From: Candidatus Omnitrophota bacterium
GTDB lineage: Bacteria > Omnitrophota > Gorgyraeia > 1-14-0-20-64-10
NCBI GenBank assembly: GCA_023248155.1
Contig: JAHFFE010000005.1
Span: 29,057 to 93,056, forward strand
Length of the DNA: 64,000 nucleotides
Reading direction: 5' to 3'
A model generated the notes under the pieces. It was not told the origin of the DNA, did no database searches, and saw nothing but the letters and a program-made list of their open reading frames with translations. The translations under genes and the position numbers were made by a program. Positions 23,188 through 54,809 of the stretch are shown one piece after another; within the stretch, counting starts at the first letter, position 1, and every line of letters starts with the position of its first letter.

Positions 23188-23208
23188 GCTCTTAGTTAAG
23201 GGGGATGA

Positions 23209-24840
23209 TTGATGTCGGTCAAGCGCAGTGCCGTTCGAATTGGAGACCTTCTGATTAAAGAGGGGGTTATTACCTCTGATCAGTTGGAGCAGGCTTTGGC
23301 GGCCCAGAACCGTTCAGAAAATGAGCCGCTGTGCGCTGCCTTGTCCCGGCTTAATATTCTTTCCGAAGAAAAATCGCTTCCTATTCTTGCCCGCCAATTG
23401 GGCATGGAAATCATTTCTGTTGATCAGCAAAAAATTTCAGCCGATTTATTAAAGCTGGTTCCCGCGCGCATCGCGACTCGCTATCATATTTTGCCGGTTT
23501 CCCGGGAAGGACAGTCGCTGCGGGTGGCGACAGCGGACCCTCTCAATATCAAGGTTTTCGATGAGCTTCAGATGCTGACGCATTGTACGATTCTTCCGGT
23601 ACTGGTATTGGGACAGCAGTTGACCGAGGCTATCCGTCACTATTACGGGGTTGGCGCCGATATGGTCGAATCGATGGTGGACGATGGAGAACTCGCGAAG
23701 GCCGCTGAACTAAGAGAAGCCGCTGAAGATCTCGACAAGATCGGCGGTGAAGCGTCGACAGTCAAATTCGTCAACCAGCTTTTATTGGAAGCGGTGCGTG
23801 ATCGCGCGACCGATGTTCACCTGGAACCCTATGAAAAACGGCTGCTGATCCGCTACCGGATTGACGGTATTTTGTACGAGGTTCCTGTTTCCGCCGACAT
23901 GAAACGATTTCATTCAGGCATTGTTTCCCGCGTTAAAGTGATGTGCAATCTGAACGTGGCCGAGCATCGGCTTCCGCAGGATGGCCGCACCAAGGTCAAG
24001 GTGGGCGGCCGTGATTTGGATTTGCGCGTGTCCATCTTGCCCGCTGCGTTCGGCGAGTCGGTCATGATCCGTTTGCTGTCCACGAATGTGGTCTTAGGTC
24101 TGGAACAGATCGGGTTGCTGCCGGACCACCTGGCCCTGTTGGAAAAAATGGTGGTCAAACCGCACGGCATTGTTTTCGTGAGCGGACCCACCGGCGCCGG
24201 AAAAACAACCACGCTGTATGCCGCTCTGGCGCGCATGAACGACCGCAAGCGCAAGGTCATTACGATTGAAGATCCGATTGAATATTTAATGCCGGGCATC
24301 ACCCAGATTCAGGTCCATCCGAAAATTGATTTTACATTCGCGGCCGCGCTGCGTTCCGTGCTGCGCCATGATCCGGATGTGGTGATGCTCGGTGAGGTGC
24401 GCGATTTTGAAACCGCGGAGACTGCCATTCGGACCGCGCTGACCGGGCACCTCGTTTTTTCAACGCTGCATACGAACGACGCGGCCGGCTGCATGACCCG
24501 ATTGCTTGATATGGGCATCGAGCCGTACCTGGCGGCTTCTTCGTTGGAATGCGCGATCGCGGTTCGGTTGGTTCGGTTGATTTGTCCCGAGTGCCGCGCG
24601 AAAGGGTGTCCCCAGTGCCGGCAGACCGGCTATAAAGGCCGAACCGGTATTTTTGAGTTTCTGGTTCTCGATGAGGATATCCGGGCATTGGTCCTGCGCC
24701 GGGCATCCGCCGGTGAAATTACAAAGATGGCTTGCTCAAAAGGAATGCGCACCCTTCGTGAAGATGGGATGGAAAAAGTTCGGCGCGGCCTGACCACGAT
24801 TGAAGAAGTGATGCGCGTTACCGAAATGGACGCTTCTTAA
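23209..24840 (+). CDS. gspE: Type II secretion ATPase GspE (PilB/GspE family) with N-terminal T2SSE_N domain
   Basis: Walker A 'GPTGAGKTT', Asp box, His box and the tetracysteine 'CPECRAKGCPQC' are present. It is 543 aa. Confidence 0.9.
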   Translation: MMSVKRSAVRIGDLLIKEGVITSDQLEQALAAQNRSENEPLCAALSRLNILSEEKSLPILARQLGMEIISVDQQKISADLLKLVPARIATRYHILPVSREGQSLRVATADPLNIKVFDELQMLTHCTILPVLVLGQQLTEAIRHYYGVGADMVESMVDDGELAKAAELREAAEDLDKIGGEASTVKFVNQLLLEAVRDRATDVHLEPYEKRLLIRYRIDGILYEVPVSADMKRFHSGIVSRVKVMCNLNVAEHRLPQDGRTKVKVGGRDLDLRVSILPAAFGESVMIRLLSTNVVLGLEQIGLLPDHLALLEKMVVKPHGIVFVSGPTGAGKTTTLYAALARMNDRKRKVITIEDPIEYLMPGITQIQVHPKIDFTFAAALRSVLRHDPDVVMLGEVRDFETAETAIRTALTGHLVFSTLHTNDAAGCMTRLLDMGIEPYLAASSLECAIAVRLVRLICPECRAKGCPQCRQTGYKGRTGIFEFLVLDEDIRALVLRRASAGEITKMACSKGMRTLREDGMEKVRRGLTTIEEVMRVTEMDAS

Positions 24841-24849
24841 CAGCCCGCC

Positions 24850-26058
24850 GTGCAATTTTTCTACCGCGCCAAACAAGATTTTAAGACCGAAGCCTCGGGC
24901 GTTGTCGAAGCGCCCGATCTTTCCGCCGCGGTAACGCATTTGAAACAAAAAGGCCTCTATCCTCTGGAAGTTACTCCAATGGAAGGCGAAACGTCGCTTC
25001 GGCTGCTTGGTTTAAAACAAAAAGCGCTTTCCCGGTCGTCGTTGGCGTTATGGGCGCGTACCCTGAGCCAGGGATTGTCCGCCGGCTTGAGTTTGATGCA
25101 GTCGCTGCATCTGTTGTCGGAACAGGAACAGGGCCGTCCGCTCGGCGCTATCGCTAAACTGCTCGGAGAGTCGATTGTTTCCGGGCTGAGCTTGGCCGTG
25201 GCGATGGAGAAGATGGATTCTGTTTTTCCGGTGATGGCCATTCGTCTGGTGGAGGCCGGTGAAGCCGGAGGCGCTCTGGAAGAGGTGCTCGATTCATTGG
25301 CCGATCAGATGGAGCTGGAAGCCGAGCTGATCGCCAAAATTCAAGGGGCGTTGTTTTATCCGTTGTTTGTTTTGCTGGTAGGCGTTGGAACCGTCGGGAT
25401 TTTACTCTGGGTGGTTATCCCCAAATTGGCGGTTCTTTTCGTAGAAACGGGGCAGCCGCTTCCATGGGCGACGCGCCTGATGATTGAATCGGGCGGTGTT
25501 TTGTTTTGGTGCGCGGCAGCGCTGGGCGTTCTGCTTCCGATTTTGTATTGGACCAGTCGCCGCATGGGGATTACCATTCCGTGGATGCGCTGGTTGATGC
25601 GGTTTTTAAACCGTTTACCGCTGGTGGGGCCATTGATCGTTCAATCCGAATTCGCCCGGTTGTCGGCCGGGTTAGGGTTGATGCTCGGGCACGGGCTCCC
25701 TCTGCCGGAGTCTCTTCGGCTGGTTTCCGGAACGCTGGGCAGCGACCGGTTGCAGCGGCAACTGCAACAATCTCAGCAGTCGGTCATTGAAGGGATGAGT
25801 TTGTCGGCGGCGCTTAAAAAGAGCGGCATCCAGGAACCGTTCTTCATGACCATGGTTGGCATGGGTGAAGCGCAGGGTGATCTGGCAAACACGTTCAACC
25901 AAGCCGCGGAACGATACCGCCGCGACGTGGATCGAAGCGTAAAAATATTAAGTTCTCTGATTGAGCCGGTGATGATTCTGTTGGTGGGGTTGGCCGTGGG
26001 CGCGGTTGTTTTTTCAATGCTGTTGCCTATATTTCAGATTAATTTCGCGGTAGAATGA
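24850..26058 (+). CDS. gspF: Type II secretion inner-membrane platform protein GspF
   Basis: 402 aa with two T2SSF repeats and 3 TM segments. It immediately follows gspE. Confidence 0.85.
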   Translation: MQFFYRAKQDFKTEASGVVEAPDLSAAVTHLKQKGLYPLEVTPMEGETSLRLLGLKQKALSRSSLALWARTLSQGLSAGLSLMQSLHLLSEQEQGRPLGAIAKLLGESIVSGLSLAVAMEKMDSVFPVMAIRLVEAGEAGGALEEVLDSLADQMELEAELIAKIQGALFYPLFVLLVGVGTVGILLWVVIPKLAVLFVETGQPLPWATRLMIESGGVLFWCAAALGVLLPILYWTSRRMGITIPWMRWLMRFLNRLPLVGPLIVQSEFARLSAGLGLMLGHGLPLPESLRLVSGTLGSDRLQRQLQQSQQSVIEGMSLSAALKKSGIQEPFFMTMVGMGEAQGDLANTFNQAAERYRRDVDRSVKILSSLIEPVMILLVGLAVGAVVFSMLLPIFQINFAVE

Positions 26059-26076
26059 ACCAACTCTAGGGGACTA

Positions 26077-26496
26077 ATGAAAAAAACATCCGGGTTCACA
26101 TTAGTTGAATTGCTGGTTGTAGTGACCATCCTGGGCATTTTGGTCGCGATGGTGGTTCCTCGTTTGGCGGGCCGGACAGAACAGGCTCGGCGCGCGCGCG
26201 CCGATTCTGATATCAAGGGAAGCCTGGCTCTGGCTTTGGACCTGTTTGAATTAGATACGGGAAAATACCCCACCTCGGAGCAAGGGCTTGCCGCGCTTCG
26301 TGCTCAACCGCCTACGGTTGAAAACTGGAGAGGCCCTTACCTGAAGCAAGATCCAATCGATCCGTGGAATAATCCTTACCGCTACGCTTATCCGGGCACT
26401 CAAAATCCTCAAGACTATGATCTTTTTTCTTTAGGGCCGGATGGAGTTGAATCGACTCAGGACGATATCACCAATTGGAGCAAATCCTCCGGGTGA
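26077..26496 (+). CDS. gspG: Type II secretion major pseudopilin GspG
   Basis: The prepilin leader is 'MKKTSG^FTLVELLVVVTILGIL'. The GspG signature 'DPWNNPYRYAYPG...DYDLFSLGPDG' is present. Confidence 0.85.
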   Translation: MKKTSGFTLVELLVVVTILGILVAMVVPRLAGRTEQARRARADSDIKGSLALALDLFELDTGKYPTSEQGLAALRAQPPTVENWRGPYLKQDPIDPWNNPYRYAYPGTQNPQDYDLFSLGPDGVESTQDDITNWSKSSG

Positions 26497-26885
26497 AGAG
26501 GGGCTTCTCCCTCATTGAAGTTCTTCTGGCATTTGCTGTCCTTACCAGTTGTTTAACGGTCGTCGCGACGGCCTTTTCCCGCCATATTACCGCCTTGCGG
26601 TTTCTGCAGGATTCGCTGATCGCGGATCCTCTCACGGAAAACGCGCTTATTCATGAAGCGCTTAAGGAGCAGGTTCAGTTTCCGGATGAGGGCGTTTCTC
26701 CTGACCTTAAATTTGAGACGCGATTATCGCGCGCCGATCTGCCGTTGGAGGATCCCGCGGTGCAAGGCCTTTTCTTCGAGGAGATCATAGCCCGCACGGA
26801 GTGGATGCAAGCTGCGGCGCCGAGATCGATAACGGCCTCCATCGGTTTTCCGAAGAAAAAAAGCACGGAACCCAGCCCATCGTGA
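26475..26885 (+). CDS. Minor pseudopilin (GspI/H-like)
   Basis: It has a 'RG^FSLIEVLLAF' class-III signal peptide. It is 136 aa. Confidence 0.65.
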   Translation: MEQILRVKRGFSLIEVLLAFAVLTSCLTVVATAFSRHITALRFLQDSLIADPLTENALIHEALKEQVQFPDEGVSPDLKFETRLSRADLPLEDPAVQGLFFEEIIARTEWMQAAAPRSITASIGFPKKKSTEPSPS

Positions 26886-27508
26886 GAAATCCGATTCGTC
26901 GCAAAAAAGGGTTTACCTTGATGGAGCTGGTAATCGCGGCTGGTTTAACCGCCATGATGGCAACAGCGGTGGTCGTGGTTCTGGGCCGCGGGTTAACCGC
27001 CTGGAAAAGAACCGACGGCCGCCTGCAAAAAATCTTTGAGCTCAAGAAAAGCGTATCGTTGTTCGAAAAAGATCTGCGCAATGCCGCCATGTTTGACCCG
27101 CTGCCTTTTGAAGGAAAGCCGGGCGAATGGATTTTCGCCTCTTCTCAGGCACCGGACCGTTTAAGCGCCGTCGGTTACCGGCTGGCGCCCGCGCCGGGCG
27201 GAGGGATGGTTCTTGAGCGAACCGTCCAACTGCTTGACCGAGAACCGCAGCCGGTCGCCGTGAAACAACTGCTTTCCGGCGTTAAAGAAGCCCGCGTTCA
27301 ATACGCCGCTTTCCGCGGTGAGCAGGAAAAAAAGAATTTGGAATGGATGGACGCGTGGGACAGCGCCGTTCAGAACAAACAGATCCCGAAGGGAATCCGT
27401 TTGACATGGGTTGTTTCTCAGGGCAGCGCGGGGCCTGATATTTCTTTTTCCGAAGAGATATGGATTCCACAGGGAGAATGGGGAGTTATTCCGAATGAAA
27501 CGGCCTAG
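26882..27508 (+). CDS. Minor pseudopilin (GspJ-like)
   Basis: 'KKG^FTLMELVIAAGL' prepilin motif. The start is placed at the GTG at 26882, overlapping the upstream stop in GTGA fashion; the tracked ORF begins at 26801. Confidence 0.65.
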   Translation: MRNPIRRKKGFTLMELVIAAGLTAMMATAVVVVLGRGLTAWKRTDGRLQKIFELKKSVSLFEKDLRNAAMFDPLPFEGKPGEWIFASSQAPDRLSAVGYRLAPAPGGGMVLERTVQLLDREPQPVAVKQLLSGVKEARVQYAAFRGEQEKKNLEWMDAWDSAVQNKQIPKGIRLTWVVSQGSAGPDISFSEEIWIPQGEWGVIPNETA

Positions 27509-28388
27509 TCAGTCGGGATCCATCTTGATGCTGGCTTTGTGGGCCACCGCGCTGTTGGCTTCGATCGGCGTGGCTCAAGCGACCCGCCTTTCTCTGCAGT
27601 ATCGGTGGGTCGATCGTCTGCGTGAGGGAAACCAGGCCCGCTTGCTGGCGGTTTCCGCGTTTCAATTGGCGGCGCACCGTTTAACGACGGCCGATCCGGT
27701 CACGGATAACGCTCAATACGACGCGCCGAAAGAATCGTGGGGGCAATTGTTAAAAAAGCCGCTGCAGCTTTCTTCGGGGACCATTCGCTATCAGATTACC
27801 GATGAACAAGCCAAAATTCCGATCAACGCGGCGCCCGCTGATTATCTGACGCGGCTGCCCGGGTTTTCACAGGCGGCCGTTAACCAGGTAATAACGGACC
27901 GCGCTCTCGGAAAACGGATCACGCATCCGGGGCAGCTGCCTTTACTGCCCGGTTTTGACGCGGATCAGTTAACACCGCTGATGGCGTTGGCAACCGTCTA
28001 TGGCCAAGGTCCGGTCAATCTGAATACGGCATCGTCCGAATCGCTTTCTCTGCTGGGATTTTCCGCCGGATTAATGACCCCGTTGCTGCAATACCGTTTG
28101 GGACCCGATCAGCAGGCAGGAACCGCTGACGACGGGGTTTTTGCCGAGGCCGGCACGGCCGGGGTTGAAACCGCGTTAAAAAGTTTTTTTGGCCAAGGTT
28201 TTTCACTGCCGGAGCCCGACAAACAAATCATGGACGGATTATTCTCGGCGAAACCCCCATTGCTTGGCGTGCGCTCTTCGGTGTATGCTATTGATGCGGA
28301 GGGAGTGACCCGCCGGCGCGCGGTGGTTCGAAAAATTTCAGCGATCGTTGATTCCGGTGGAACCGTGAAAGGATGGCATGAAAACTAA
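27495..28388 (+). CDS. gspK: Minor pseudopilin GspK-like
   Basis: The N-terminus 'SGSILMLALWATALLASIG' is hydrophobic and GspK-like, the protein is about 300 aa, and the gene sits in operon position. The start is placed at the ATG at 27495. Confidence 0.6.
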   Translation: MKRPSQSGSILMLALWATALLASIGVAQATRLSLQYRWVDRLREGNQARLLAVSAFQLAAHRLTTADPVTDNAQYDAPKESWGQLLKKPLQLSSGTIRYQITDEQAKIPINAAPADYLTRLPGFSQAAVNQVITDRALGKRITHPGQLPLLPGFDADQLTPLMALATVYGQGPVNLNTASSESLSLLGFSAGLMTPLLQYRLGPDQQAGTADDGVFAEAGTAGVETALKSFFGQGFSLPEPDKQIMDGLFSAKPPLLGVRSSVYAIDAEGVTRRRAVVRKISAIVDSGGTVKGWHEN

Positions 28389-29856
28389 GCCCGCTGTTTC
28401 CGCGGCAAAAGTGGTTACCACGGTAAGCGTGCACGGCAATTGTTTGAAAGTGCTTCAGGTTGAATTAGCAGGCTCATCCTCCTCGATTGATTTTCCAAAC
28501 GCGGACGCGCTGAAGGTGTTAGGCGTTAAAGCGCTTCGTCTGTCCGAATTAAAAGAACCGGCCATCGCGCAAGCATTGCGAGGCATGGTCGATTCATTGC
28601 CGGTGCGCACGCGGGAATTGGTCGGTCTTTTGCCCGCCAGTGAAATATTAACGCGCTATGTCACACTTCCTTCCCAGCAGACTTCCGAATTATCCGCCAT
28701 GGTTCGTTATCAATTGGACGGCGCGCTTCCGTTTTCCGTGGAAGATTGCGTCCTGTCAATTAAGGTGCTGGAGCAATCGAATGGTTCAACGCGTGTGCTG
28801 GCCGCGGCGGTGCATCGGCCCGTGGTTGAACGGTTAATTCAATTGTGCCAATCGGCCGGCCTGGTATTAACGGAGATTTCCGCCTCAGGGGAGGCCGTCG
28901 GATATTTGCACCGTGCCTGCTGGCCGGCGGGTGTGCCCCGAATCACCGGGGGATGGCTGGCCGCCGAGCTATCGTCGGACGGTTTGGATTTGACTGTTTT
29001 TTCCGGAAATTCGCTGGTCTATATGCGGCAGATTACGCACGCGGTCGATGATGCCGAAGAATTCGTCCGATTGATCAAAGAAACACAGCGCGCTTATGAA
29101 CGGGAGAATGTGGGGCCGTCCGTCCAGTGCGTTACGCTGGGCGGCGCCGCCGTGTGGATGTCCACCTTGCCTCTGGAATCGTTCGAGCGAGAGTTGGGAA
29201 TTCCCGTGCATCGGGTTGATTCGGAAGAACAATCCATTTTAGGCAAATCATTGAAGGGGATTACGCAAGAATTCGGACAATCCATTTCTTTCTCCGATTT
29301 GTTGGGAGCCGCGTGCGGCACCCGCTCCGTCAGTCTCGATTTGCTTCCGCTGGAGAGCCGCCTGGTCCGCGCGCGCGGACTTTTCTTCCAAGAAGTCCAA
29401 AAGACGGCCGCGCTGGGATTACTCTGTTTAACGATCGGTCTGTCGTGGGGCGGCGTTCATCGGGCTGGGCTTTGGTGGCAATTAAAAGAACTGCAGCGGC
29501 AAACCGACAGCATTAAGCCGCGCGCCGCTCGGGTTCAATCGATGGCGGAATCCATTCGAACGCTGGCGGCGGCTCGGGAAGACTATCTATTCCAGCTGGA
29601 ATCGATTCGCCGTGCCACAGACCGGCTCTCTTCGGGCATGACGCTTCAATTTCTGGGATTGGAATCGGGCCGGTCGCTGGTGCTGCGCGGAACGGGGCCG
29701 GAATTATCCGCGGTTACGGCCTACGCCTCTTCGCTGCGTGACAGCGCGTTCTGGTCGGATGTGGCGCTCAATTCGGCAAAAAAACAAACGAGCGGCGATC
29801 GCGTCGAATTTGAATTCACGTTGAAACCTGCCGTGGAACCCCGAAAAAAACAATGA
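28378..29856 (+). CDS. GspL/PilM-PilN-like bitopic assembly protein (actin-like cytoplasmic domain, 1 TM, periplasmic domain)
   Basis: 492 aa with a central TM 'AALGLLCLTIGLSWGGV' and an operon position between gspK and gspM. Confidence 0.6.
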   Translation: MKTKPAVSAAKVVTTVSVHGNCLKVLQVELAGSSSSIDFPNADALKVLGVKALRLSELKEPAIAQALRGMVDSLPVRTRELVGLLPASEILTRYVTLPSQQTSELSAMVRYQLDGALPFSVEDCVLSIKVLEQSNGSTRVLAAAVHRPVVERLIQLCQSAGLVLTEISASGEAVGYLHRACWPAGVPRITGGWLAAELSSDGLDLTVFSGNSLVYMRQITHAVDDAEEFVRLIKETQRAYERENVGPSVQCVTLGGAAVWMSTLPLESFERELGIPVHRVDSEEQSILGKSLKGITQEFGQSISFSDLLGAACGTRSVSLDLLPLESRLVRARGLFFQEVQKTAALGLLCLTIGLSWGGVHRAGLWWQLKELQRQTDSIKPRAARVQSMAESIRTLAAAREDYLFQLESIRRATDRLSSGMTLQFLGLESGRSLVLRGTGPELSAVTAYASSLRDSAFWSDVALNSAKKQTSGDRVEFEFTLKPAVEPRKKQ

Positions 29857-30374
29857 ATAAAACAGCTTCGTTTCTGGGGTTGGCGATTTTCTTCTTCGTT
29901 GGAAGCATGGCGCTGGTTTTTTCCGGACAACGGTTTATGGAGTCCTGGAATCGGGATCTGCGGAGTTTAGAAGCGGGCCAGGAACGGTTGCGCCGCCAGG
30001 AAGGATGGCTGTTAGTTCAGGATGAAGTGAAGAAATGGCATGATCAGGCGTGGGGTAATTCGTCGGGTTTAAGCGGCCAGCGCGCTTATTGGTTTGGGTT
30101 GGAAGGGTTTCAGCAGATGGCGCAGTCCCAGGGTCTTGCCGTCACCGAAATTCGCCCCGCGATTCTTCAAGCCGGATCTAAACAGGAACCCCTCTACCGC
30201 TTGGACGCGAAAGTAACCGGGCCCATGGATAACATGGCTCTTTTGTTGAAACAGCTTCCCGAACGGATTCCCGGTGTTCAGTTGGAAAGCGTTCAGTTCT
30301 CGCCGTTGGAAGAGGGGCAGATTCAGGGGTTAATTCGTCTGATGTTGAGGGGAGATCCGTCCGTTGCCGGATAA
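29853..30374 (+). CDS. GspM/PilO-like bitopic protein
   Basis: 173 aa with an N-terminal TM 'FLGLAIFFFVGSMALVF'. Confidence 0.5.
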   Translation: MNKTASFLGLAIFFFVGSMALVFSGQRFMESWNRDLRSLEAGQERLRRQEGWLLVQDEVKKWHDQAWGNSSGLSGQRAYWFGLEGFQQMAQSQGLAVTEIRPAILQAGSKQEPLYRLDAKVTGPMDNMALLLKQLPERIPGVQLESVQFSPLEEGQIQGLIRLMLRGDPSVAG

Positions 30375-30867
30375 ATCAGCGGCTGATCTGTTATCGATTC
30401 AGCAGCTGGAAGATAATCGCCGCACCTTAAGCCGTGTCCGCGTGTTATTCTGGATTCTGCTGCCTATTTTGCTGGCAGCAGCTGTTTTGGAATCGTTCGT
30501 CTGGATGAAATCAATTCGCCGAAAACCGGAACCGCTGGCTCCCTCGATCGATGATTTAAAGAAGCCGCTGCCTGAAATCCCGGCACTGGTATTGTCGTCC
30601 GCTTTGTTTGAAATCAAGAAAACGGCTGTACCGGTCAAGCCGCCGGTTGAAACGGCTCCGATGCAGGTGGCTACCGAGCAGGTCCAATGGAAATTGCGCG
30701 GAGTGATCATGGCCGGGAATAAGCGGGCCTCCTTAGAAGATCCGAAAACGCAGCAAACGGTTTGGGTTTCCGAGGGTGACCGCGTCGGAAATTTTGTCGT
30801 GAAGAAAATTGATTCCAACGCTGTCTTGCTTGAACTGGAAGGGAAGGATTATGAAATCCGAATCTAG
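30364..30867 (+). CDS. GspC/PilP-like protein
   Basis: 167 aa with an N-terminal TM. The C-terminal beta-rich segment 'TVWVSEGDRVGNFVVKKIDSNAVLLELEGKDYEIRI' is PilP/GspC-HR-like. Confidence 0.5.
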   Translation: MPDKSAADLLSIQQLEDNRRTLSRVRVLFWILLPILLAAAVLESFVWMKSIRRKPEPLAPSIDDLKKPLPEIPALVLSSALFEIKKTAVPVKPPVETAPMQVATEQVQWKLRGVIMAGNKRASLEDPKTQQTVWVSEGDRVGNFVVKKIDSNAVLLELEGKDYEIRI

Positions 30868-32653: not shown

Positions 32654-32745
32654 TCTTTCCACACCCTTGATTTCCGGGTTATTTTCAGCCAAACTTCCTT
32701 TGTAAGTTGATGCGCAGATTCACAAACTGAAAAAAGCACACTTCA
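32646..32745 (+). promoter_or_regulatory. Conserved ~100-bp upstream cassette, copy A, preceding S8 protease 1
   Basis: 'acgaataatctt...cccttgattt..ggg.t.ttt.agc...gttgta...gatgcRcAgATTCACAAACTGAAAAA.GCACACTTC' aligns in register with copy B. Confidence 0.55.
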
Positions 32746-32845
32746 ACCGCTTCTGGTTCTCCCAATAGGGGGAATGGGAAGCGATTTTTATGGGGACTAT
32801 ATTGAGCGATTGCTTTAGTTTTTGATCGAAAGCCTGGGGTGCCTG

Positions 32846-39304: not shown

Positions 39305-39305
39305 C

Positions 39306-39405: not shown

Positions 39406-39583
39406 GGGAACTGAAGGTCGCAAAGCCGCGGGTCCGTCCAGAGCAGGCTGGCGGATAGTCGGGCTACCAGGCAAAAGAAAATCAGGCTGGCAAGCGATCT
39501 TGGGATTCCCATGAACAGGGAAACCGGGATTTTTTATTTAGGCTGAATTTCGACTGTTTCAAAAAGGTTAACGGGGGGCTCAG

Positions 39584-44296: not shown

Positions 44297-44323
44297 TAGC
44301 TTCAGTTGCCATAGGTGACACTT

Positions 44324-44368
44324 TCTTTGTAGACTGATGCATAGATTTACAAACTGAAAAATGCATAC
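44324..44368 (+). promoter_or_regulatory. Conserved upstream core, copy C, preceding S8 protease 3
   Basis: 'ctttgtagactgatgcatagatttacaaactgaaaaatgcatac' shares the 'tgatgcRYAgAtTtACAAACTGAAAAAtGCAtAC' core. Confidence 0.5.
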
Positions 44369-44391
44369 TGTTTTTTAACGGGGGGGCTCAG

Positions 44392-47300: not shown

Positions 47301-50300
47301 CCGAGTCGATGGAGTCATTCAGGGGTCGCCCGCGGTGGGTGACGTGGACGGCGATGGCACTGACAATGTGGTTGTGGCGGCTAACCGGGGCGGTGTGTAT
47401 GTTTTTGAAAAAAATGGTAGTCTGATGCCCGGCTGGCCTGCGTTGAGAGACGAGTCTTTTCAAACGCAGCCGGCTTTGGCTGATTTTGATCGGAACGGCG
47501 ATCTTGAAGTTTCAATCGGTGTTGGGCGAGTCGTCTATCTTTTGGATTCGTTCGGCCGCATACTTCCAGGATGGCCGCAGAACATGGTCTTGTTCGAGAA
47601 TGAGGTTATTGCTGTTGTCAGCACCGTAATAGGCGACATCAATGGCGATGGAAATGCGGACATCATTACTGCTGCTGGGGGTTTGCGCCCTCTGGTCGTC
47701 CAATCTGGAGCATCTTCTTTCAGCGGAGGGGTTTTTGCCTGGAATTTTGACGGGACACCGATTGATTTAAATCCGGATTCAGGATTTAACCGTAATCTTT
47801 TTACGGAGAATGTGGCGATCGTGCCGCCGGTCATCGATGATCTGGATGGAGACGGGAAAGTGGAGCTGGTGGCCAGCTCGACCGATGATAAGGCATGGGA
47901 TATTCTGCGGGATCATAAAACAAAAAACAGGCGGTCTATTTATGTGTGGGGCCTGGATGCTGCCTATGACGTTTCCAAAATGCCGTGGCCCGCGTTTCAG
48001 CATGACAACGCGCACAGCGGTCGAGTAATTGTCCCCAGGCCTTTGGTCCCTTCGGCCCCGGCGAATTTCTCGGCAGAGGCAACATCATTTTCCAGCATTA
48101 TTCTGAGATGGACGGATACGGCCGATACTGAGCAAGGGTTTAAAGTATTCCGGAGCCTCAATGGAACCGACTATACGCAAATTGCCAGGTTGGGGCGTGA
48201 TGTAACTTCATATCTGAATCGGGGTCTTGCGCCTACGACCCCCTATCATTATAAAATCACCGCTTATAATACAACCGGTGATTCCGCTCCGGCCGGTCCG
48301 ATGAGCATCACGACGCCGGAATTACCACCGGCCGCGCCGTCAGCTCTTTCGGCTCAGGCAGTCTCAGGCACGCAGATCAATCTTAACTGGACCGATCAAT
48401 CCAGCAACGAGACCGGCTTTTATCTCGTTCGGAGTGAGAGCGGAGCGGGCGGTTTTAGTCGAATTGCTACGCTTTCGGCCAACATCACCTCCTATGTGGA
48501 TATAAGCGGCCTGACTCCCCTCACCACCTATCAATACAAAGTGCAGGCGTATCACCTGGGCGGATCATCGGAGTTTTCCGAATTGGCGAGCGCCACAACG
48601 CTGGAGGCGCCTCCTCGGGCTCCAGAAAATCTTCGAGCTCGGGCTGTTTCACCGACTCAGATCGATCTCACCTGGCGTGATAAGTCCGATAACGAGACCG
48701 GCTTTAAAGTTTATCAGAGCGTGGATGAGACCAACTTTGTTGAAGTTGCCAACGTGGATTCGTCTGATGTTAGGGCGCATTCTATTAGCGGCCTGAATTC
48801 CAATACCCGCTATTTTTACAAAATCACGGCTTACAACAGCATGGGTGAATCAACGCTTGTTGGGCCGGTGAATGCAATGACGCCGAATTCACCTCCAGCG
48901 CCGCCCGGTTCTCTTCATGCCACTTTGCTGGTTACGCCAACTTCCGCAGACCGAATCCAGCTGACCTGGGTGGATCAATCCAACAATGAGCAGGGTTTCC
49001 GCGTGTTTCAAAGCAGGGACGGGGGAGTCAGCTTCAATCGAATCGCCAGCCCCTCAGCCAATGTCACTACTTACACGACCCGGGCGCTGGCGGTCAACGC
49101 CACCTATCATTATCAAGTCATTGCATATAACAATGGGGGCGAATCAGAGCCTTCGGGTTTGGCGAATGAAACGACCCGGGAGACTCCGCCTGAGCCGCCA
49201 ACCTCTTTTCGGGCCCAGGCGGTTTCACCCACCCAGATTGATTTGGCGTGGCGGGACCCATCCGATAATGAGGCTGGTTTCAAAGTATACGACGGCAGCC
49301 TTAATCTGATAGCCGCGCTGGGAGCTGATGTCACCAGTTACAGCCATCTGAATTTGACACCCAACACGCGCTACGACTACAAGGTGGTTGCTTATAATGA
49401 CCTCGGTGAGTCAGCGGTTGTCGGTCCTGTGAATGCCACGACGTTCAACACACCACCTCAAGCGCCGACCTCTTTGAGTGCCACTGTTTTGGCCACCGGC
49501 AATGAGATCCGATTGACTTGGACCGATCAATCCAATAATGAGCAAAACTTCAAAGTTTTTGAGAGTGTGGATGGGGGTGAGTTTACCCAAATCAGAAGCC
49601 TCGGGGCGAATGTCACCACTTATACAGCCGGTAGACTGGCGATCAACAAAACCTTCAGCTACAAAGTCCAGTCTTATAACAATGGGGGAGCGTCCGAGTT
49701 TGCCGGTCCTGTGAGTGCCACGACACGGGACGTACCGCCTGCACCGCCGACTTCTTTGCGTGCACGGTCGGTTTCAACGACCCAGATTGATTTGACCTGG
49801 GCGGACCAATCCAATAACGAGACCGGTTTCAAGGTTTTTCAGAGTTTGGATGGAATTACTTTTTCTCAAATCGCCACTCTTGGGGCCGATGAAAGAGTCT
49901 ATTCCGTAAACGGCCTTACTGTCGGCACTCGTTATGACTACAAGGTGACTGCTTACAATGACATTGGCGAATCGGCACCGGCTGGCCCAGTGAACGCAAC
50001 GACGGTGGACGTTCCGCCTTCGCCGCCCGCTTCTCTTCAGGCCGTGTTGGTGGTCACATCGACTTCGGCCAACCAGATCCGGCTTACCTGGGCGGACCAA
50101 TCCAATAACGAGACAGGCTTCCGGGTGTTCCAGAGCACGGACGGGGGAGTCAACTTTGATCGAATCGCCAGCCCTGCGGCCAATGTTACCACCTACACGA
50201 TTCAAAATCTGGCGCTCAACGCCACCTATCATTATAAAGTTCAGTCCTACAACAGCGGTGGAACGTCCGAGTTCGCCGGCCCGGTGAGTGCCACAACCCA

Positions 50301-50868
50301 GGACGTACCGCCTCCACCGCCAACGTCTCTTCGGGCCCGGGCGATTTCCTCCAGCCAGATCGACCTGACGTGGCGCGACCGGTCCAGCAACGAGACGGGC
50401 TTCCGGGTGTATCGTGAGACCAATGGTGTGCTGAGCGAGATAGCGGTCCTCGGTCCCGGTGTCACTGGTTACAACCATGTAGGTCTTACTGAGAACACCC
50501 AGTATTACTACAAGGTGGTTGCTTACAATAGCATTGGGGAATCAGCGGCTGTGGGTCCTGTGAGCGCGACGACATTAAAGACCACCCCAGCATCTCCCAG
50601 CAATCTGTCAGTTGGCAGCGTTACGGTTTCTGCCATTAAGCTGAACTGGCGTGATAATGCAAGCAATGAAGAGGGTTTCAGAATCTACCGCAGTGCCGAT
50701 AACATTACCTTTACTCGAATCAAACAGGTTGCCACTATGAACTTGCAAACCTACAACAACACCGGTCTCGCTCCTCAGACCACTTACTACTACAAGGTCA
50801 CCGCTTATAATAGCGGCGGAGAATCCGATTTGGCCGGGGCTGTTTCTATCAGTGCCAGGACCTCATGA
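44392..50868 (+). CDS. Giant secreted S8 serine protease 3, with signal peptide, propeptide, S8 domain, FG-GAP repeats and about 10-11 tandem FN3 domains
   Basis: Triad motifs are 'IAVIDTGVDYNHPDL', 'HGTHCSGIA' and 'GTSMACPHVAGLAGLL'. The N-terminal 37 aa are nearly identical to protease 2. Confidence 0.9.
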   Translation: MKLTNFRKSRWNRSLSLFLVASLCFLQMPVTFAQAMVPESADPTQIEPSEDLPEYVPGEFIVKLKEGHTLAELDGLRVENGILSAEPIFPKVASPEENLAELKQKRAGLDNPDHTSWFWWSNKESSEAKNYEARNAREKARLDAAIAAQTALVQKLVDRKKRAPEGSVVPSLEGIHLLKAASDADVSSLVAIFQSNPAVDYAQPNYKQKILQVPNDEFYSIQWGPQKIQADLAWDITTGSEDVIIAVIDTGVDYNHPDLAANIWSDPITGQHGYDFFNNDNDPMDDHGHGTHCSGIANAVTNNAIGVAGISWNSKIMALKFLSAAGSGDTVDGLRAIEWAVDHGADVLSNSWGGGPYEPPLQLAIDYADASGCVVVAAAGNSNTDRVFYPAAYNHVISVAATSRNDQRASFSNYGPSVDVAAPGVAILSTVPSSGAALRDPSGYRLLSGTSMACPHVAGLAGLLLAGRPGLSTQEVESVLKASSDDIYAQQIPDPLTGASVPLNPLYIGQGRINARKAVELIQGLPIGALVTQGLLTGPVIRGLAGGANFARYDLYHGKGINPARSEWVFIHGSTVPVLDDPATPAANNDGILYADFDPTTLEEGKNTLILVIQTLDGREIEYRTSVMAINFTALFPLNNDILRKGDSITVRGSILGSFLDYTVQYGEGKNPQVWKTEGISLLHPGAGRNVEGDLASWDTSVVPPTSLLFGNFYTLKISVTRESGVKDYFIYMVYLDDKLKQGWPQYIQKSSSGSADFADMKTADLDQDGIKEIITVRAGTEMVPITALFVYRLDGSLKWSKQLDGFGNGSIVPLIGDINRDGKNEIFVSVRDPASPSADKIYAFNGDGTNFGTGWPATIRLGLATLLMADLNQDGKNKIVARSHNSELIGGREKEFLFILNQAGVIEKEIEFPNQSRSFSRSPFQSVGNFDDDRELEIVLVSGTGLAGSSESAVFVFNPDGSLVSGWPARVDGVIQGSPAVGDVDGDGTDNVVVAANRGGVYVFEKNGSLMPGWPALRDESFQTQPALADFDRNGDLEVSIGVGRVVYLLDSFGRILPGWPQNMVLFENEVIAVVSTVIGDINGDGNADIITAAGGLRPLVVQSGASSFSGGVFAWNFDGTPIDLNPDSGFNRNLFTENVAIVPPVIDDLDGDGKVELVASSTDDKAWDILRDHKTKNRRSIYVWGLDAAYDVSKMPWPAFQHDNAHSGRVIVPRPLVPSAPANFSAEATSFSSIILRWTDTADTEQGFKVFRSLNGTDYTQIARLGRDVTSYLNRGLAPTTPYHYKITAYNTTGDSAPAGPMSITTPELPPAAPSALSAQAVSGTQINLNWTDQSSNETGFYLVRSESGAGGFSRIATLSANITSYVDISGLTPLTTYQYKVQAYHLGGSSEFSELASATTLEAPPRAPENLRARAVSPTQIDLTWRDKSDNETGFKVYQSVDETNFVEVANVDSSDVRAHSISGLNSNTRYFYKITAYNSMGESTLVGPVNAMTPNSPPAPPGSLHATLLVTPTSADRIQLTWVDQSNNEQGFRVFQSRDGGVSFNRIASPSANVTTYTTRALAVNATYHYQVIAYNNGGESEPSGLANETTRETPPEPPTSFRAQAVSPTQIDLAWRDPSDNEAGFKVYDGSLNLIAALGADVTSYSHLNLTPNTRYDYKVVAYNDLGESAVVGPVNATTFNTPPQAPTSLSATVLATGNEIRLTWTDQSNNEQNFKVFESVDGGEFTQIRSLGANVTTYTAGRLAINKTFSYKVQSYNNGGASEFAGPVSATTRDVPPAPPTSLRARSVSTTQIDLTWADQSNNETGFKVFQSLDGITFSQIATLGADERVYSVNGLTVGTRYDYKVTAYNDIGESAPAGPVNATTVDVPPSPPASLQAVLVVTSTSANQIRLTWADQSNNETGFRVFQSTDGGVNFDRIASPAANVTTYTIQNLALNATYHYKVQSYNSGGTSEFAGPVSATTQDVPPPPPTSLRARAISSSQIDLTWRDRSSNETGFRVYRETNGVLSEIAVLGPGVTGYNHVGLTENTQYYYKVVAYNSIGESAAVGPVSATTLKTTPASPSNLSVGSVTVSAIKLNWRDNASNEEGFRIYRSADNITFTRIKQVATMNLQTYNNTGLAPQTTYYYKVTAYNSGGESDLAGAVSISARTS
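48040..50860 (+). repeat. About 10 tandem FN3-domain coding repeats (~285-290-bp period) in protease 3
   Basis: The recurrent protein pattern is 'PP.PP..L.A.AVS.TQIDLTW.D.S.NETGFKV(Y/F)QS.DG..F..IA.LGA.VT.Y...GL...T.Y.YKV.AYN..GES'. Confidence 0.8.
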
Positions 50869-53800
50869 AGGACAAACTTCCAAAGCGTTTTGTTTCTTTT
50901 CTTTTAGTTGCTTTGTTCTGCCTTTTGCAAACCCCGCAATTTTCAACGCCGGCGGTTGCTGATGATTTGAGTCTTTCTGCGCGCGCGGTGATGAAAAAAT
51001 TTCTCCAAAGGCACAGCCATCCGTCAGAAGAGGTTTTTTTGAACTCTGTTCCCGGGGAGCTGATTGTAAAACTCAAAGAAGGGCACACTCTGGCAGAACT
51101 GGATGGCTTGAAACAGAAATACCGGATCCTTAGTGATGAACCCGTTTTTCCACCGGTTGTCTCTCCGCAAGAAAGCCTTGCTGAACTGAAAAAGCAACGG
51201 ACCGCGTTGGAGAACCCCGATCATTCCGGCTGGTACTGGTGGTCGGACAAGGAATCGAAAGAATCGAAAGATTACGAGACGCGAATCGCCCAGCAGAAAG
51301 AGAATCTGGACAAGGCGATTAAAAACAAAGAACAGTTGATCGATCACTTGCAAGCCCGCCAACAACGTGCCCCCGAGGGAAGCTCGGCTCCTTCGTTAGA
51401 AGGGATCCATTTGCTGAGAGCGGCTGAGGACGCGGACATTCCCTTGCTGGTAAATAAATTTCAAGACCACCCTGCAGTGGCCTATGCTGAACCCAATTAC
51501 GAAATGAAAATCAACGCTCTTCCGAACGATACTTATGTGGATCCCGACGGGGACGGGGATTGGGAGACAGCACCCTGGATTCCGGCCTCCAGTTCGGTGA
51601 TCTACGAGGCACTTTGGGGCGTCAGGAAGATTGAGGCGGACCGGGCCTGGGATTTGTTTGCTCAGCAGGGGACTCAGCCCGGTTTTGAACGAGCGGGGCA
51701 TGGAGTAGTGGTGGCGATCATCGACACCGGTATCGATTACAGGCACCCTGATTTGGCGGCGAACATCTGGCCGGGATTAGGTCACGATTTTGTTAACAAT
51801 GATGATGACCCGATGGATGACAACGGTCATGGAAGCCACTGCGCCGGGACGATTGGGGCTGTGGGAGGCAATGGAATCGGGATTATCGGCATCGCTCCCG
51901 GGGTTCAACTGATGGCTGTCAAAGGACTTAATGCGGAGGGTTCGGGAAGCAATGATCATTTAGCCCAATGCGTGCGCTATGCCACAGACAATGGAGCCGA
52001 CATTTTAAGCAATTCTTGGGGTGGGCAGGGAACTTCCAGCTTGTTTAACGAAGTATTTTCCTACGCGCAGGCTCATGGGGTGATCTGCGTTGCGGCGGCT
52101 GGTAACAATAACGCAAGCGTAAACGGTTTTACACCTGCCAATGTGCCTGGCGTCATTACCGTGGGGGCCAGCGATTCCCATGATCAGAAAGCCTCTTTTT
52201 CCAACTGGGGAGCCCGAGTCGATCTGTCTGCTCCCGGCGGGGGTGTTGCATCGGAGTTGGGCGGTAATGATTCCGACATCAGGAACATTCTTTCTACTCT
52301 GCCGGAAGGGGTGACGATTTCCGAAAACCATGAACTTCAGGTCAGCGAAGGCTATTACCGGTTGGCTGGAACCTCGATGGCTTGCCCCCATGTCTCCGGC
52401 GCGGCGGCTTTGGTATTAGCAAGACGTCCGGGCACAAGGCCTGATGAGATGAGAACCCGTTTAAGGGCCACCGCGGATGCCTATCCGGTTGCTCCGTCTG
52501 TTCCGCTGGGTACCGGCCGCTTGAATGCTTACCGCGCGGTTGATGCGGAGCCTTTTCCGTTTATTCAAGTCATCGGTTCCGAGCAAACAGAAGGGGCCGG
52601 AAACGGCGATGGAATGATTGAAGCCGGCGAAGAGCTTCGACTGGTTGTCAAGGTAAAGAACTTTTGGGCCTCGGCCTCGAACGTTAGTGTCACGGTCCGA
52701 TTGCCGGAAGGAACGCCTCTCTCAGTGGTTTCCGGTTTTACGCAGCTGGGTACTTTGGCGGCTGGAGAACAGAAAGAAAATTCTGATCAACCCCTGGTTT
52801 TAAAAGTTCGGGACGATTTTCGGCTGACGGGGGAATACCCGGTTTTGTTCGATCTGCTGGCGGACGGACATCTTCGGACCGTTTCGGGTTCTGTGCGCCT
52901 GGGTGTTTTGTTTTTGCCTCTGCCGGAGGGAGCGAATCCTTCCTTGGCTCGATTATCCGGACAAAAGCTGGTCTATCAGGATGACCGTCGTTTAAACAAT
53001 TCCTACCATGACTTGTATGAATATGATTTAAGCCGGAAGGTGGAGCGATTACTGCTTGCGTACCCCGGGACTCCGGAAGAGGAAGATATTCGTATCGATG
53101 AACTGGCTTATGAAAACGGCAAAGTGATTTTGGACCGGATGCATCTTCCCCTGGATGTGGAGGATTACCAGAGAACGCTCACATTGTTGCGTTCCGATAA
53201 CGGACGAGAAAAAACGATTGTTAGGCTGCGGCAGCCTTCTGATCCGGATTCCTCACCCCTTGATTTTCCGTATCATCCGGTTTTTCGGGATGGCCGGTTG
53301 GCTGCTATCGACTACGGTACGGTAAGGGGCCAGATTGTTCAGAAGGGATTGGCTGTTCGGAACGTGTCGGCCCAGGGTTCCACGAGTCTTTTTTTGAAGG
53401 AGGATTTTGATGGAAGAGGGGTTTCCGCCTTCGATCTCTCCGGCAACCGTCTTGTGGCGGCGGCGCAGGATGAGACGTCCGGCCGGACCGACATCCTGCT
53501 CTATGATATGACCACGCGTCAGTCTCAAACGATCGCGTCGGAGTCTCGGCCTCTTACGATCGTAAGTGGCCTAAGCGTAGATGGAAATTTTGTAGCGTGG
53601 AGTACGATTGCGTTTAATCTGTCTATCGGGCCACCCGGCATTCCCCTTCTCGGGCTGACATTCAATTTTCAAATTTTCGTTCATGATCTGCGCAGTCACG
53701 TGACCCGGGTTCTCGCGCGCGTCGATAACGGCAGTTTCTTTAGTTTTTTTTCACCCCCGTTTGTTCGGGACGGCTGGGTGGTTTGGGCCGATCCCCGGGC

Positions 53801-54809
53801 CGACCCTGCGAAAATTTCTTCGGATATCTACTTATACGATTTGTCAACGGATCGAGAGATCCGGTTCGTTTCCAGTTCGAAAATAGAACACGATCCCGGC
53901 ATTTCCGATGGGCTGGTTTATTGGCAGGAGGGAATTCGCTTAAGCAAGATTTGCCTGGCAAAACTTCCGGAAAGCCACCCGCCTGTTCTCGATCCGCTAA
54001 CGCAGCAAACCGTTGATGAGGAACAATTATTAAGTTTCACGCTTCACGCCACGGATCCGGATGGCGGGCAGATCCGATTCTTGGCCGATTCTCTGCCGCG
54101 GGGCGCCTCTTTGGATCCCGAAACCGGTCTATTTTCCTGGACTCCCGATTATACGCAGGCGGGTTCTTACCCCGTCATATTTCGGGCCGACGACAACCGG
54201 GCCTCCGTTACGCAGAGCGTTTCGATTCTGGTCCGGAATATTCCTCGTCCGCCTGTGCTGGCCGCCATTCCGGACAAATCGGTGAATGAAAACATGACAC
54301 TCTCATTCACCATTTCGGCGACGGATCCGGACGGAGAAGTGATCAGCTACAGTGCTGACGATCTTCCGGATGGGGCGCAGTTTAATTCAGCGCAGAGAAG
54401 ATTTTCATGGAAACCGAACTACAACCAGTCCGGTTTTTACGTAGTGAAGTTTATAGCGAAGGATCCTGGAAATTTGGCTGATTCTGAAGTTGTTCAGATT
54501 ACGGTCAACCATGTGAATCGTCCGCCAGGTCTCAATAGTATCGGAGTCCCCGGAAGAGGTGGGGTTGCATTGAAAGGCGTTCGGGCTACCCGGACATTGA
54601 CTTTTACCGTGAATGGGTCCGATCCGGATGGGGATGCGCTAACCTTCAGCGCTTCAGGATTGCCTGCGGGAGCGTCGTTTGATCCTCAGACGAGAACATT
54701 TAGCTGGACTCCGACCGCTCGGCAGGGCGGCGTTTACAATGTGGTCTTCCGGGTATCCGACGGCATCCGAACGGATTCTCAAACCATCAACATCATTGTC
54801 ACCGCATAA
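50865..54809 (+). CDS. Secreted S8 serine protease 4, with S8 domain, a PD40/TolB-like beta-propeller and 4 cadherin-like repeats
   Basis: Triad motifs are 'VAIIDTGIDYRHPDL', 'HGSHCAGTIGA' and 'GTSMACPHVSGAAALV'. Its ATG overlaps the protease 3 stop ('ATGA'). Confidence 0.85.
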   Translation: MKDKLPKRFVSFLLVALFCLLQTPQFSTPAVADDLSLSARAVMKKFLQRHSHPSEEVFLNSVPGELIVKLKEGHTLAELDGLKQKYRILSDEPVFPPVVSPQESLAELKKQRTALENPDHSGWYWWSDKESKESKDYETRIAQQKENLDKAIKNKEQLIDHLQARQQRAPEGSSAPSLEGIHLLRAAEDADIPLLVNKFQDHPAVAYAEPNYEMKINALPNDTYVDPDGDGDWETAPWIPASSSVIYEALWGVRKIEADRAWDLFAQQGTQPGFERAGHGVVVAIIDTGIDYRHPDLAANIWPGLGHDFVNNDDDPMDDNGHGSHCAGTIGAVGGNGIGIIGIAPGVQLMAVKGLNAEGSGSNDHLAQCVRYATDNGADILSNSWGGQGTSSLFNEVFSYAQAHGVICVAAAGNNNASVNGFTPANVPGVITVGASDSHDQKASFSNWGARVDLSAPGGGVASELGGNDSDIRNILSTLPEGVTISENHELQVSEGYYRLAGTSMACPHVSGAAALVLARRPGTRPDEMRTRLRATADAYPVAPSVPLGTGRLNAYRAVDAEPFPFIQVIGSEQTEGAGNGDGMIEAGEELRLVVKVKNFWASASNVSVTVRLPEGTPLSVVSGFTQLGTLAAGEQKENSDQPLVLKVRDDFRLTGEYPVLFDLLADGHLRTVSGSVRLGVLFLPLPEGANPSLARLSGQKLVYQDDRRLNNSYHDLYEYDLSRKVERLLLAYPGTPEEEDIRIDELAYENGKVILDRMHLPLDVEDYQRTLTLLRSDNGREKTIVRLRQPSDPDSSPLDFPYHPVFRDGRLAAIDYGTVRGQIVQKGLAVRNVSAQGSTSLFLKEDFDGRGVSAFDLSGNRLVAAAQDETSGRTDILLYDMTTRQSQTIASESRPLTIVSGLSVDGNFVAWSTIAFNLSIGPPGIPLLGLTFNFQIFVHDLRSHVTRVLARVDNGSFFSFFSPPFVRDGWVVWADPRADPAKISSDIYLYDLSTDREIRFVSSSKIEHDPGISDGLVYWQEGIRLSKICLAKLPESHPPVLDPLTQQTVDEEQLLSFTLHATDPDGGQIRFLADSLPRGASLDPETGLFSWTPDYTQAGSYPVIFRADDNRASVTQSVSILVRNIPRPPVLAAIPDKSVNENMTLSFTISATDPDGEVISYSADDLPDGAQFNSAQRRFSWKPNYNQSGFYVVKFIAKDPGNLADSEVVQITVNHVNRPPGLNSIGVPGRGGVALKGVRATRTLTFTVNGSDPDGDALTFSASGLPAGASFDPQTRTFSWTPTARQGGVYNVVFRVSDGIRTDSQTINIIVTA

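Follow-up and report, generated by a model that had tools for sequence, protein, structure and literature searches.

A conserved type II secretion operon and four tandem giant subtilases, one preceded by a predicted c-di-GMP-I riboswitch, in a Candidatus Omnitrophota genome

The 64,000-nucleotide stretch of contig JAHFFE010000005.1 analysed here (the window) comes from an uncultivated Candidatus Omnitrophota bacterium. Between 23.2 and 54.8 kb, with all genes on the plus strand, it holds a ten-gene operon for a type II secretion system (T2SS) followed by a tandem array of four paralogous giant proteases of the subtilase (S8) family, each with a Sec-type signal. The account that we favour, with moderate confidence, is that the operon encodes a general T2SS, that the four subtilases are its likely cargo and that one of them is gated by a riboswitch, wiring expression at the locus to cyclic di-GMP (c-di-GMP). 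The riboswitch, its recurrence in related genomes and the repeated placement of giant proteases beside the same operon carry this account and are taken first.

A c-di-GMP-I riboswitch in the leader of the second protease

The aptamer lies between proteases 1 and 2 (39385-39471) and has a GNRA loop. Alignment to what we take to be the sequence of the Vc2 riboswitch places G, A and C at the equivalents of Vc2 G20, A47 and C92, so that the element is predicted to be a canonical c-di-GMP sensor. These three nucleotides are named as the ligand contacts of Vc2 (PMC4744006). Across six Omnitrophota copies, 14 of 21 base pairs show compensatory changes, and the tetraloops GGAA, GCAA, GAAA and GUAA were seen among the copies. 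The GGC variant family RF03167 was rejected for the window copy, which scores 55 against a threshold of 59 and has A at the A47 equivalent, where the consensus of that family is G (GCGAA); GCAAA or GCAAC is read in all six aptamer copies, including those with an RF03167 score above threshold. A sensor of cyclic GMP-AMP (the A20 type) was also rejected, the G20 and A47 equivalents being kept.

A predicted intrinsic terminator (Table 1) begins about 22 nt after the aptamer and is followed by the ribosome-binding site and the ATG of protease 2 at 39584; a terminator consensus scan passed over it owing to its internal bulge. In prefix folds of 120-140 nt, the 5' arm of this hairpin pairs with the first aptamer hairpin, and once the 3' arm is present the aptamer and terminator are favoured together. 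The folding model suggests that ligand binding promotes termination and that the element works as an OFF switch.

The preliminary description of this DNA had recognized a conserved element upstream of three of the proteases. The sharing is real, but the element is not a simple common one: it is the front of the riboswitch leader. Before proteases 1 and 2 it extends over 81-99 nt (∼80-81% identical) and before protease 3 over 50 nt, and its end is formed by the first 19 nucleotides of the aptamer (ACUGAAAAAGGCACACUUC). In the alignment, the protease 1 leader lacks the aptamer core and the 3' arm of the terminator owing to two gaps (53 and 29 nt), and the remnant before protease 3 passes directly into a ribosome-binding site and start common to protease 2. 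Neither remnant was detected as a riboswitch (the protease 1 leader was searched with Rfam at E ≤ 5 and with our own covariance model at E ≤ 1), and Rfam searches in E-value mode of the gspE and protease 1 leaders returned only chance matches at the level of small nucleolar RNAs. The simplest history, judged from these alignments, would be that a gene led by a riboswitch was duplicated and that two of the copies then lost the sensor by deletion, a history that would make the locus a documented case of riboswitch decay after gene duplication.

Two sets of genomes were used for comparison: 80 genome loci found by secretin alignment, onto which all window proteins were mapped, and a protease-similarity sample of eight homologues with genomic DNA (L084-L087, L168-L170 and L172), most of them named Omnitrophota. 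With Rfam, S8 giants are seen to be directly preceded by aptamers of the GEMM-I type in L084 (both genes), L085 and L086. Our own covariance model, built from six aptamers, adds a copy in L170 (80.7 bits) and, upstream of the L087 protease, a tandem pair with weak scores, for a tally in the protease sample of four strong cases out of eight and one weak. In L069, L031 and L065 the same model finds copies that lead other giants with signal peptides, located beside a secretin or close to it; in the first two the riboswitch-led giants adjoin the secretin, and in L058 a copy directly follows the secretin at the end of the contig. A hairpin with a U-run comes after the aptamer in nearly all copies examined (most clearly in L084b, L085, L086, L087, L065, L069 and L170); no clear terminator follows the L031 copy. 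As a negative control only, the model was run over 927 kb around 80 unrelated S8 genes (≤41% identity) taken from a metagenome scan with generic S8 motifs, and it found no riboswitch there.

The same riboswitch class also stands before a small, cytoplasmic-looking conserved protein (HRVITMLxRxxxxFLDKxGKD; called at 107-211 aa) in L072 (5031-5116), L042 (71-201) and L023 (1-50). In L172 (366-7849, minus strand) a copy scoring 56.8 bits heads a leftward run that adjoins an S8 giant with dockerin and comprises an 89-aa gene, proteins of 1013, 735 and 1672 aa that belong to no Pfam family and a 572-aa PilZ protein; this run is a further link of c-di-GMP to large proteins.

Linkage of the giant proteases to the secretion operon

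The preliminary description had proposed that the T2SS is dedicated to the proteases that follow it. The ten-gene order is identical in the nearest relatives (L003-L012), the secretins of which are 59-68% identical to that of the window, and a looser E-F-G...L...C-D order is found in about 30 more distant Omnitrophota loci. An S8 gene follows the secretin in two of the 65 loci with at least 1.5 kb of downstream sequence (L003 and L052), and in addition in L005, which has 1.4 kb. Elsewhere the neighbours beyond the secretin are unrelated and include a porin-like gene with an Amt transporter (L004 and L008), glutamine synthetase (L011), a histidine kinase (L046), SMC (L082) and an RHS toxin (L080); many distant loci share a recurring set of five genes (∼388, 370, 289, 235 and 213 aa) at this point. 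Conservation of the T2SS without the proteases in close relatives, named in advance as the observation that would tell against dedication, was found among L003-L012 and the ∼30 further loci. With the same operon present phylum-wide, mostly beside unrelated neighbours, dedication is not supported: the T2SS is best read as the phylum's conserved general-purpose operon.

Seen from the proteases, linkage recurs. L084, on the same contig as L011, has two S8 giants (1988 and 1423 aa) directly upstream of gspE, and L169 has a 1314-aa S8 protease directly upstream of its gspE-to-gspD run. Over the two samples, giant S8 genes abut the secretin on its downstream side in three loci (L003, L005 and L052) and gspE on its upstream side in two (L084 and L169). 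Since direct adjacency would be expected by chance in only about 0.1-0.2% of loci (for a single ∼10-kb operon among the one to a few thousand genes of a genome), its occurrence in two of the eight protease-sampled loci makes the linkage of protease and T2SS strongly non-random, and the T2SS flank is a favoured site for secreted giants in Omnitrophota. The recurrent adjacency in the window and in these five loci leads us to propose that the proteases are probably cargo of the general T2SS; the earlier suggestion that the adjoining T2SS exports them is thus plausible.

Under this proposal, a Sec signal peptide would take each protease across the inner membrane, with a fervidolysin-type pro-region split by a coiled-coil insert. 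After folding in the periplasm, the protease would be driven out through the secretin by a GspG-I-J-K pseudopilus powered by GspE. Its catalytic head (S8 domain and β-propeller) is carried on a long stalk made up of domains of the Ig-like or fn3 type. In the leader of protease 2, the ligand-bound aptamer would allow the terminator to form and switch the gene off; in the absence of ligand, pairing of the terminator 5' arm with the first aptamer hairpin would permit read-through. The leaders of proteases 1 and 3, of the same descent, would have escaped riboswitch control through loss of the aptamer core and terminator, and protease 4 may be translationally coupled to protease 3.

A number of observations weigh against this account. 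No T2SS operon is found within 10 kb in six of the eight protease-sampled loci; five of the loci (L085, L086, L087, L168 and L170) carry tandem arrays of the same protease family without a T2SS in that range, L170 having a lone gene for a 357-aa T2SSE-family ATPase ∼9 kb downstream. The family also has homologues in archaea and Patescibacteria, which are not known to have an outer membrane, and a T2SS is therefore no general requirement for the family. At 140-230 kDa, the folded proteases would equal or exceed in size the T2SS substrates that have been well studied. No prepilin peptidase GspO (peptidase A24) was found in the locus or among the scanned open reading frames (ORFs) of the window; it may lie elsewhere. 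On the regulatory side, the minimum-free-energy fold of the full leader holds both aptamer and terminator, which makes the OFF logic a kinetic argument, and in one L084 copy (L084a) the terminator 5' arm is the aptamer 3' strand, an ON-type layout, so that the modelled switch direction may differ between genes. The riboswitch stands before the first gene in other arrays and before the second here. A scan for sigma-70 promoters gave 22 sites against 17 ± 4.2 expected, and no promoter was identifiable in the shared element.

Several of these points would fit a non-functional adjacency, in which the proteases are exported by Sec and then stay in the periplasm, reach the surface or leave by another exit (vesicles, lysis or an unrecognised system), the Gsp machinery exporting other proteins. 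Most sampled family members have no nearby T2SS, there are the archaeal and patescibacterial homologues, the proteins are large for T2SS cargo, and dockerin domains in some relatives suggest surface scaffolding. We regard this explanation as unlikely: direct adjacency, found in two of the eight protease-sampled loci and also in the window, L003, L005 and L052, far exceeds what chance would give, the operon flank repeatedly holds signal-peptide giants, and neither an anchor, a lipobox with a small -1 residue nor a sorting tag was found in the four proteases.

The arrangement of the 14 genes, which lie on one strand with short gaps and with protease 1 starting 192 nt past the secretin, and the S8 giants that abut the same operon in L003, L005, L052, L084 and L169 could also be read as one co-evolved island with a machine dedicated to its proteases. 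This is improbable in view of the unrelated neighbours that the operon keeps in most relatives, including those with 59-68% identical secretins; moreover, the proteases lie on either side of the operon or far from it in other genomes, other riboswitch-led giants hold the same position in L069 and L031, and the locus shows no G+C break, tRNA or integrase. A mobile-island reading was rejected on the last of these grounds.

The operon, the proteases and their surroundings

The Gsp-type operon (gspE-F-G-I-J-K-L-M?-C-D; 23212-32653) is set out with the other features of the locus in Table 1. The gene set given in the preliminary description, gspEFG-(I/J)-KLM-(C)-D, is confirmed with corrections: the profile matches of the GspL-like and GspC-like proteins are weak, the GspM-position protein has none, and the word 'complete' is slightly overstated for a locus with no candidate for GspH or GspN and, as noted, none for GspO. 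GspE and GspF pass the Pfam cutoffs without reaching the NCBIfam equivalog cutoffs (564 of 630 and 279 of 424 bits). Minor pseudopilin genes of the I-, J- and K-like kinds are present, all with NCBIfam scores below cutoff, and the GspI-like and GspJ-like gene calls were taken from the ENA contig. The positional counterpart of the GspM-position protein in L169, also of 173 aa, matches PilO; a PDB search with the GspC-like protein gave nothing. A GspC-like gene is detectable in most Omnitrophota loci and a GspM-position gene only in the nine closest.

Table 1. Coordinates (in the window) and supporting matches of the features of the secretion and protease locus.
Feature	Position	Strand	Evidence
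gspE, ATPase with N-terminal MshEN	23212-24840	+	Pfam T2SSE 410 bits, MshEN 70 bits; NCBIfam GspE 564
gspF, inner-membrane platform	24850-26058	+	Pfam T2SSF 173 bits; NCBIfam GspF 279 bits
gspG, major pseudopilin	26077-26496	+	T2SSG and N_methyl; TIGR01710 144.3, above equivalog cutoff 88.85
GspI-like minor pseudopilin, 130 aa	26493-26885	+	N_methyl and T2SSJ matches in the I/J pair; weak NCBIfam GspI
GspJ-like minor pseudopilin	26921-27508	+	As above for the I/J pair; weak NCBIfam GspJ
GspK-like minor pseudopilin	27495-28388	+	HHH_3; NCBIfam T2SS_GspK 65.5 bits, E 5.6e-18, below cutoff
GspL-like assembly protein, 492 aa, PilM-like and PilN-like halves	28378-29856	+	PilM_2, T2SSL, PilN; NCBIfam GspL, PilM
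GspM/PilO-position bitopic protein, 173 aa	29853-30374	+	One N-terminal transmembrane segment; no profile match
GspC-like bitopic protein, 167 aa	30364-30867	+	One N-terminal transmembrane segment; weak GspC, E 6e-4
Secretin GspD, 600 aa, TonB_C-like C-terminal tail	30851-32653	+	Secretin 159 bits, Secretin_N 88 bits, weak TonB_C
Leader element before protease 1	32646-32744	+	80% identical to 39306-39404; first 19 aptamer nt only
Protease 1, S8, 2152 aa, FG-GAP propeller, He_PIG/Big_9/cadherin-like array	32846-39304	+	
c-di-GMP-I riboswitch aptamer	39385-39471	+	RF01051 58.2 bits against gathering 35, E 8.6e-9
Predicted intrinsic terminator, 12-bp interrupted hairpin and U6AU3	39494-39540	+	Fold prediction
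Protease 2, S8, 1570 aa, FG-GAP, three fn3	39584-44296	+	
Leader element before protease 3	44320-44369	+	Matches element core; without aptamer or terminator
Protease 3, S8, 2158 aa, FG-GAP, ten fn3	44392-50868	+	Exact copy is P0121
Protease 4, S8, 1314 aa, degenerate Tricorn/PD40-type propeller, He_PIG/Big_9	50865-54809	+	

The subtype of the secretin is ambiguous (PilQ 263 bits and GspD 243 bits in NCBIfam, each below cutoff), and the higher PilQ score, together with an ATPase that matches PilB nearly as well as GspE (545 against 564 bits), PilM/PilN matches among the assembly proteins and L169 counterparts that match PilN and PilO, could be taken to indicate a fibre resembling a type IV pilus, with a role in adhesion, motility or DNA uptake, to which the proteases are mere neighbours. 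We consider this very doubtful, since the major pilin (139 aa) scores above the equivalog cutoff for GspG, the locus includes a GspC-like protein and a minor pseudopilin of the GspK type, which is specific to T2SS, no retraction ATPase is encoded in it, and the PilM/PilN matches are explained by the nature of GspL, itself a PilM-PilN-like fusion.

The C-terminus of the secretin (32250-32653) is TonB_C-like (21.7 bits, slightly below cutoff). Many Omnitrophota secretin homologues carry TonB_C or TonB_2 in precomputed Pfam annotation and some are titled 'TonB family protein'; the tail appears from these matches to be an unusual fusion in place of the usual S-domain region. The N-terminus of GspE matches the NCBIfam c-di-GMP_motif profile NF053729 (47.1, cutoff 38). 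The MshEN motif consists of two tandem 24-residue units, RLGxx(L/V/I)(L/V/I)xxG(L/V/I)(L/V/I)xxxxLxxxLxxQ, of which motif I is intact in GspE (RIGDLLIKEGVITSDQLEQALAAQ) and motif II is degenerate, lacking the Arg and both Gly residues. In XpsE, c-di-GMP binding is abolished by changes comparable to these (PMC5013675). The domain is a possible second c-di-GMP input.

That the operon is followed by four subtilisins with signal peptides, as first described, is confirmed by S8 profiles (PF00082, 175-201 bits), by intact Asp-His-Ser triads in that order with aligned DTG, HGT(S)H and GTSMA motifs and by Sec-type N-termini in all four. Proteases 2 and 3 are identical at 33 of their first 37 residues, in keeping with the two near-identical signal peptides reported before. 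No further hydrophobic segment is present in any of the four, which finish at their last Ig or fn3 domain and have no membrane anchor, no lipobox with a small -1 residue and no Pfam match to a sorting domain; the reported absence of C-terminal sorting tags stands. The size range first given, 1314-2160 aa, is right except for its upper value, protease 1 most likely starting at ATG 32846 and not at TTG 32822. The start of protease 4 overlaps the stop of protease 3 (ATGA).

A Fervidolysin_NPro-like pro-domain scores 27-31 bits in proteases 1-3 and 19.6 in protease 4 (cutoff 21). The coiled-coil insert of the pro-region (HxxWYWxxDKxSxEYKxY) is found in the four window proteases, in the L052 protease and in the Omnitrophota S8 protein P0202, and the motif is also in the consensus of a ten-sequence head alignment. 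Over ∼1250 aa, proteases 1 and 3 have heads that are 49% identical, and the head of protease 2 is 38-39% identical to these; protease 4 has in common with the others only the pro-region, the S8 domain and ∼150 residues beyond it. Independently of this relatedness, the stalks are of the He_PIG/Big_9 type in proteases 1 and 4 and of the fn3 type in proteases 2 and 3, an arrangement indicating at the sequence level that heads and stalks are shuffled among the paralogues.

FG-GAP propellers had been assigned correctly to proteases 1-3. The PD40 propeller proposed for protease 4 is partly right: its middle region has no Pfam match even at E ≤ 10 and a PDB sequence search gave nothing useful, but it aligns with P0202 (33% identity over 961 aa), the propeller of which has weak Tricorn_N and faint PD40 matches. 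This homology decided the assignment, a single-sequence AlphaFold model of the region (mean confidence, pLDDT, 47) having been left out of the fold search. Protease 1 contains a tandem repeat (36986-38233; 4.6 copies of 273 bp, 82% matches), and in the ENA assembly the protein has 1978 aa against 2160 aa, exactly two He_PIG units fewer; the difference reflects either strain variation or collapse of the repeat in assembly.

That second assembly is independent and holds the same locus at 99.5-99.98% identity, with leaders identical to those of the window. The relatives of the secretin are nearly all Candidatus Omnitrophota metagenome-assembled genomes, the top species-representative genome being only 65% identical. 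The locus is flanked on the 5' side by hopanoid/isoprenoid genes and on the 3' side by lexA and nth. The hopanoid/isoprenoid cluster (7951-22855) comprises polyprenyl synthase, dxs, squalene-hopene cyclase, an HpnH-like radical SAM protein, a second gene like squalene-hopene cyclase, a Rieske protein, a nucleotidyl/CDP-alcohol transferase and ispH. Upstream of it lies a 2618-aa ORF (23-7879) whose only matches, to HATPase_c (24 bits) and a MeaB-like P-loop, are weak, and an 801-aa ORF at 59144-61549 has no Pfam match at E ≤ 0.001.

The 350-nt gap between ispH and gspE contains a strongly structured imperfect palindrome of ∼290 nt (22905-23200) with a perfect 20-bp closing stem. Its predicted stability is -144.6 kcal/mol (z = -6.9; none of 200 shuffles was equally stable), it has no Rfam match and parts of it are 75-76% identical to the extreme contig ends of two Omnitrophota metagenome-assembled genomes (L061 and L079), which suggests a dispersed repeat resembling a miniature inverted-repeat transposable element or a structured leader. 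Related Omnitrophota contigs also carry an intein-containing DnaB (L084, 1-891) and an SMC gene with an inserted intein-like segment (L082, 2760-8078).

Relation to known systems

In Klebsiella, the substrate gene pulA lies beside pulC-O. The window shares with such Gsp/Pul/Eps operons the core E, F, G, I/J/K-like, L-like, M-like, C-like and D genes in one operon and the adjoining genes for Sec-dependent exoenzymes; it differs in having no GspH, GspN or GspO in the locus, a TonB_C-like secretin tail, an E-to-D order with the secretin last and, as cargo candidates, four paralogues of 140-230 kDa. Within the phylum, giant genes encoding more than 30,000 aa are generally preceded by a T2SS-like locus (10.1101/2023.11.21.568195; 10.64898/2026.06.07.730766) of more than ten genes with gspD/E/F, rcpC and rotamase (10.1101/2023.11.21.568195), and S8 domains occur at the N-termini of some of these giants (10.1101/2023.11.21.568195; 10.64898/2026.06.07.730766). 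The window resembles these loci in its phylum and in having gspD/E/F within a locus of at least ten genes that directly adjoins very large proteins with signal peptides, but it has four separate proteases of 1.3-2.2 thousand residues, and rcpC and rotamase were not found. Set against the giant-gene definition of West-Roberts 2023, it matches in position and secretion locus and not in gene size. Secreted giants beside an Omnitrophota T2SS are thus a pattern already known in kind. Large S8 peptidases with FG-GAP and Ig domains from Verrucomicrobiota, Omnitrophota, Phycisphaerae, Methanolobus and others have the same domain order and heads 30-49% identical to those of the window, which differs from them in the conserved coiled-coil insert of the pro-region and in the four tandem copies beside a T2SS.

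The regulatory part has its own precedents. GbpA of Vibrio cholerae is a T2SS substrate. Its gene, for a secreted colonisation factor, is under a class I c-di-GMP riboswitch (Vc1-gbpA; PMC4744006), and in Clostridioides difficile c-di-GMP riboswitches lie upstream of zmpI and adhesins (PMC6200980). The window element belongs to the same family, RF01051, keeps the contact nucleotides and likewise occupies the 5' leader of a gene whose product is secreted; here, however, the target is a giant subtilase in an array of paralogues with two decayed leaders, and in Omnitrophota the association recurs across an uncultivated phylum. The window also has a clear terminator platform, whereas none is apparent in Vc1 (PMC4744006). 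Neither study of Omnitrophota giant genes mentions a riboswitch (10.1101/2023.11.21.568195; 10.64898/2026.06.07.730766; the word occurs 0 times in the latter), and a literature search found no paper tying riboswitches to Omnitrophota exoproteins. The families of the parts are all known; c-di-GMP control of secreted giant proteases at the level of the phylum is apparently unreported, as the combination of parts at this locus also seems to be.

A wider reading, which we offer tentatively and think more doubtful than not, makes c-di-GMP the master signal of an attack or attachment secretome in Omnitrophota, in which class I riboswitches gate the secreted giant proteases and other exoprotein giants adjacent to the T2SS, the secretion ATPase senses the same ligand through MshEN, and the loss of the riboswitch from two paralogues of this array has left constitutive proteases beside gated ones. 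If this were true, the mix of secreted proteases would shift as c-di-GMP rises or falls, for instance when a free-living cell becomes attached to a host or prey.

Omnitrophota, which are mostly ultra-small and have not been cultivated, are suspected to be predatory or host-dependent. The locus places a predicted canonical riboswitch with a clean terminator before a giant secreted protease, in a pairing conserved across several genera. The riboswitch RNA is amenable to in vitro work without culturing of the organism, and metatranscriptomes could track protease expression linked to c-di-GMP. The locus gives a concrete regulatory handle on the deployment of very large extracellular proteins in the phylum.

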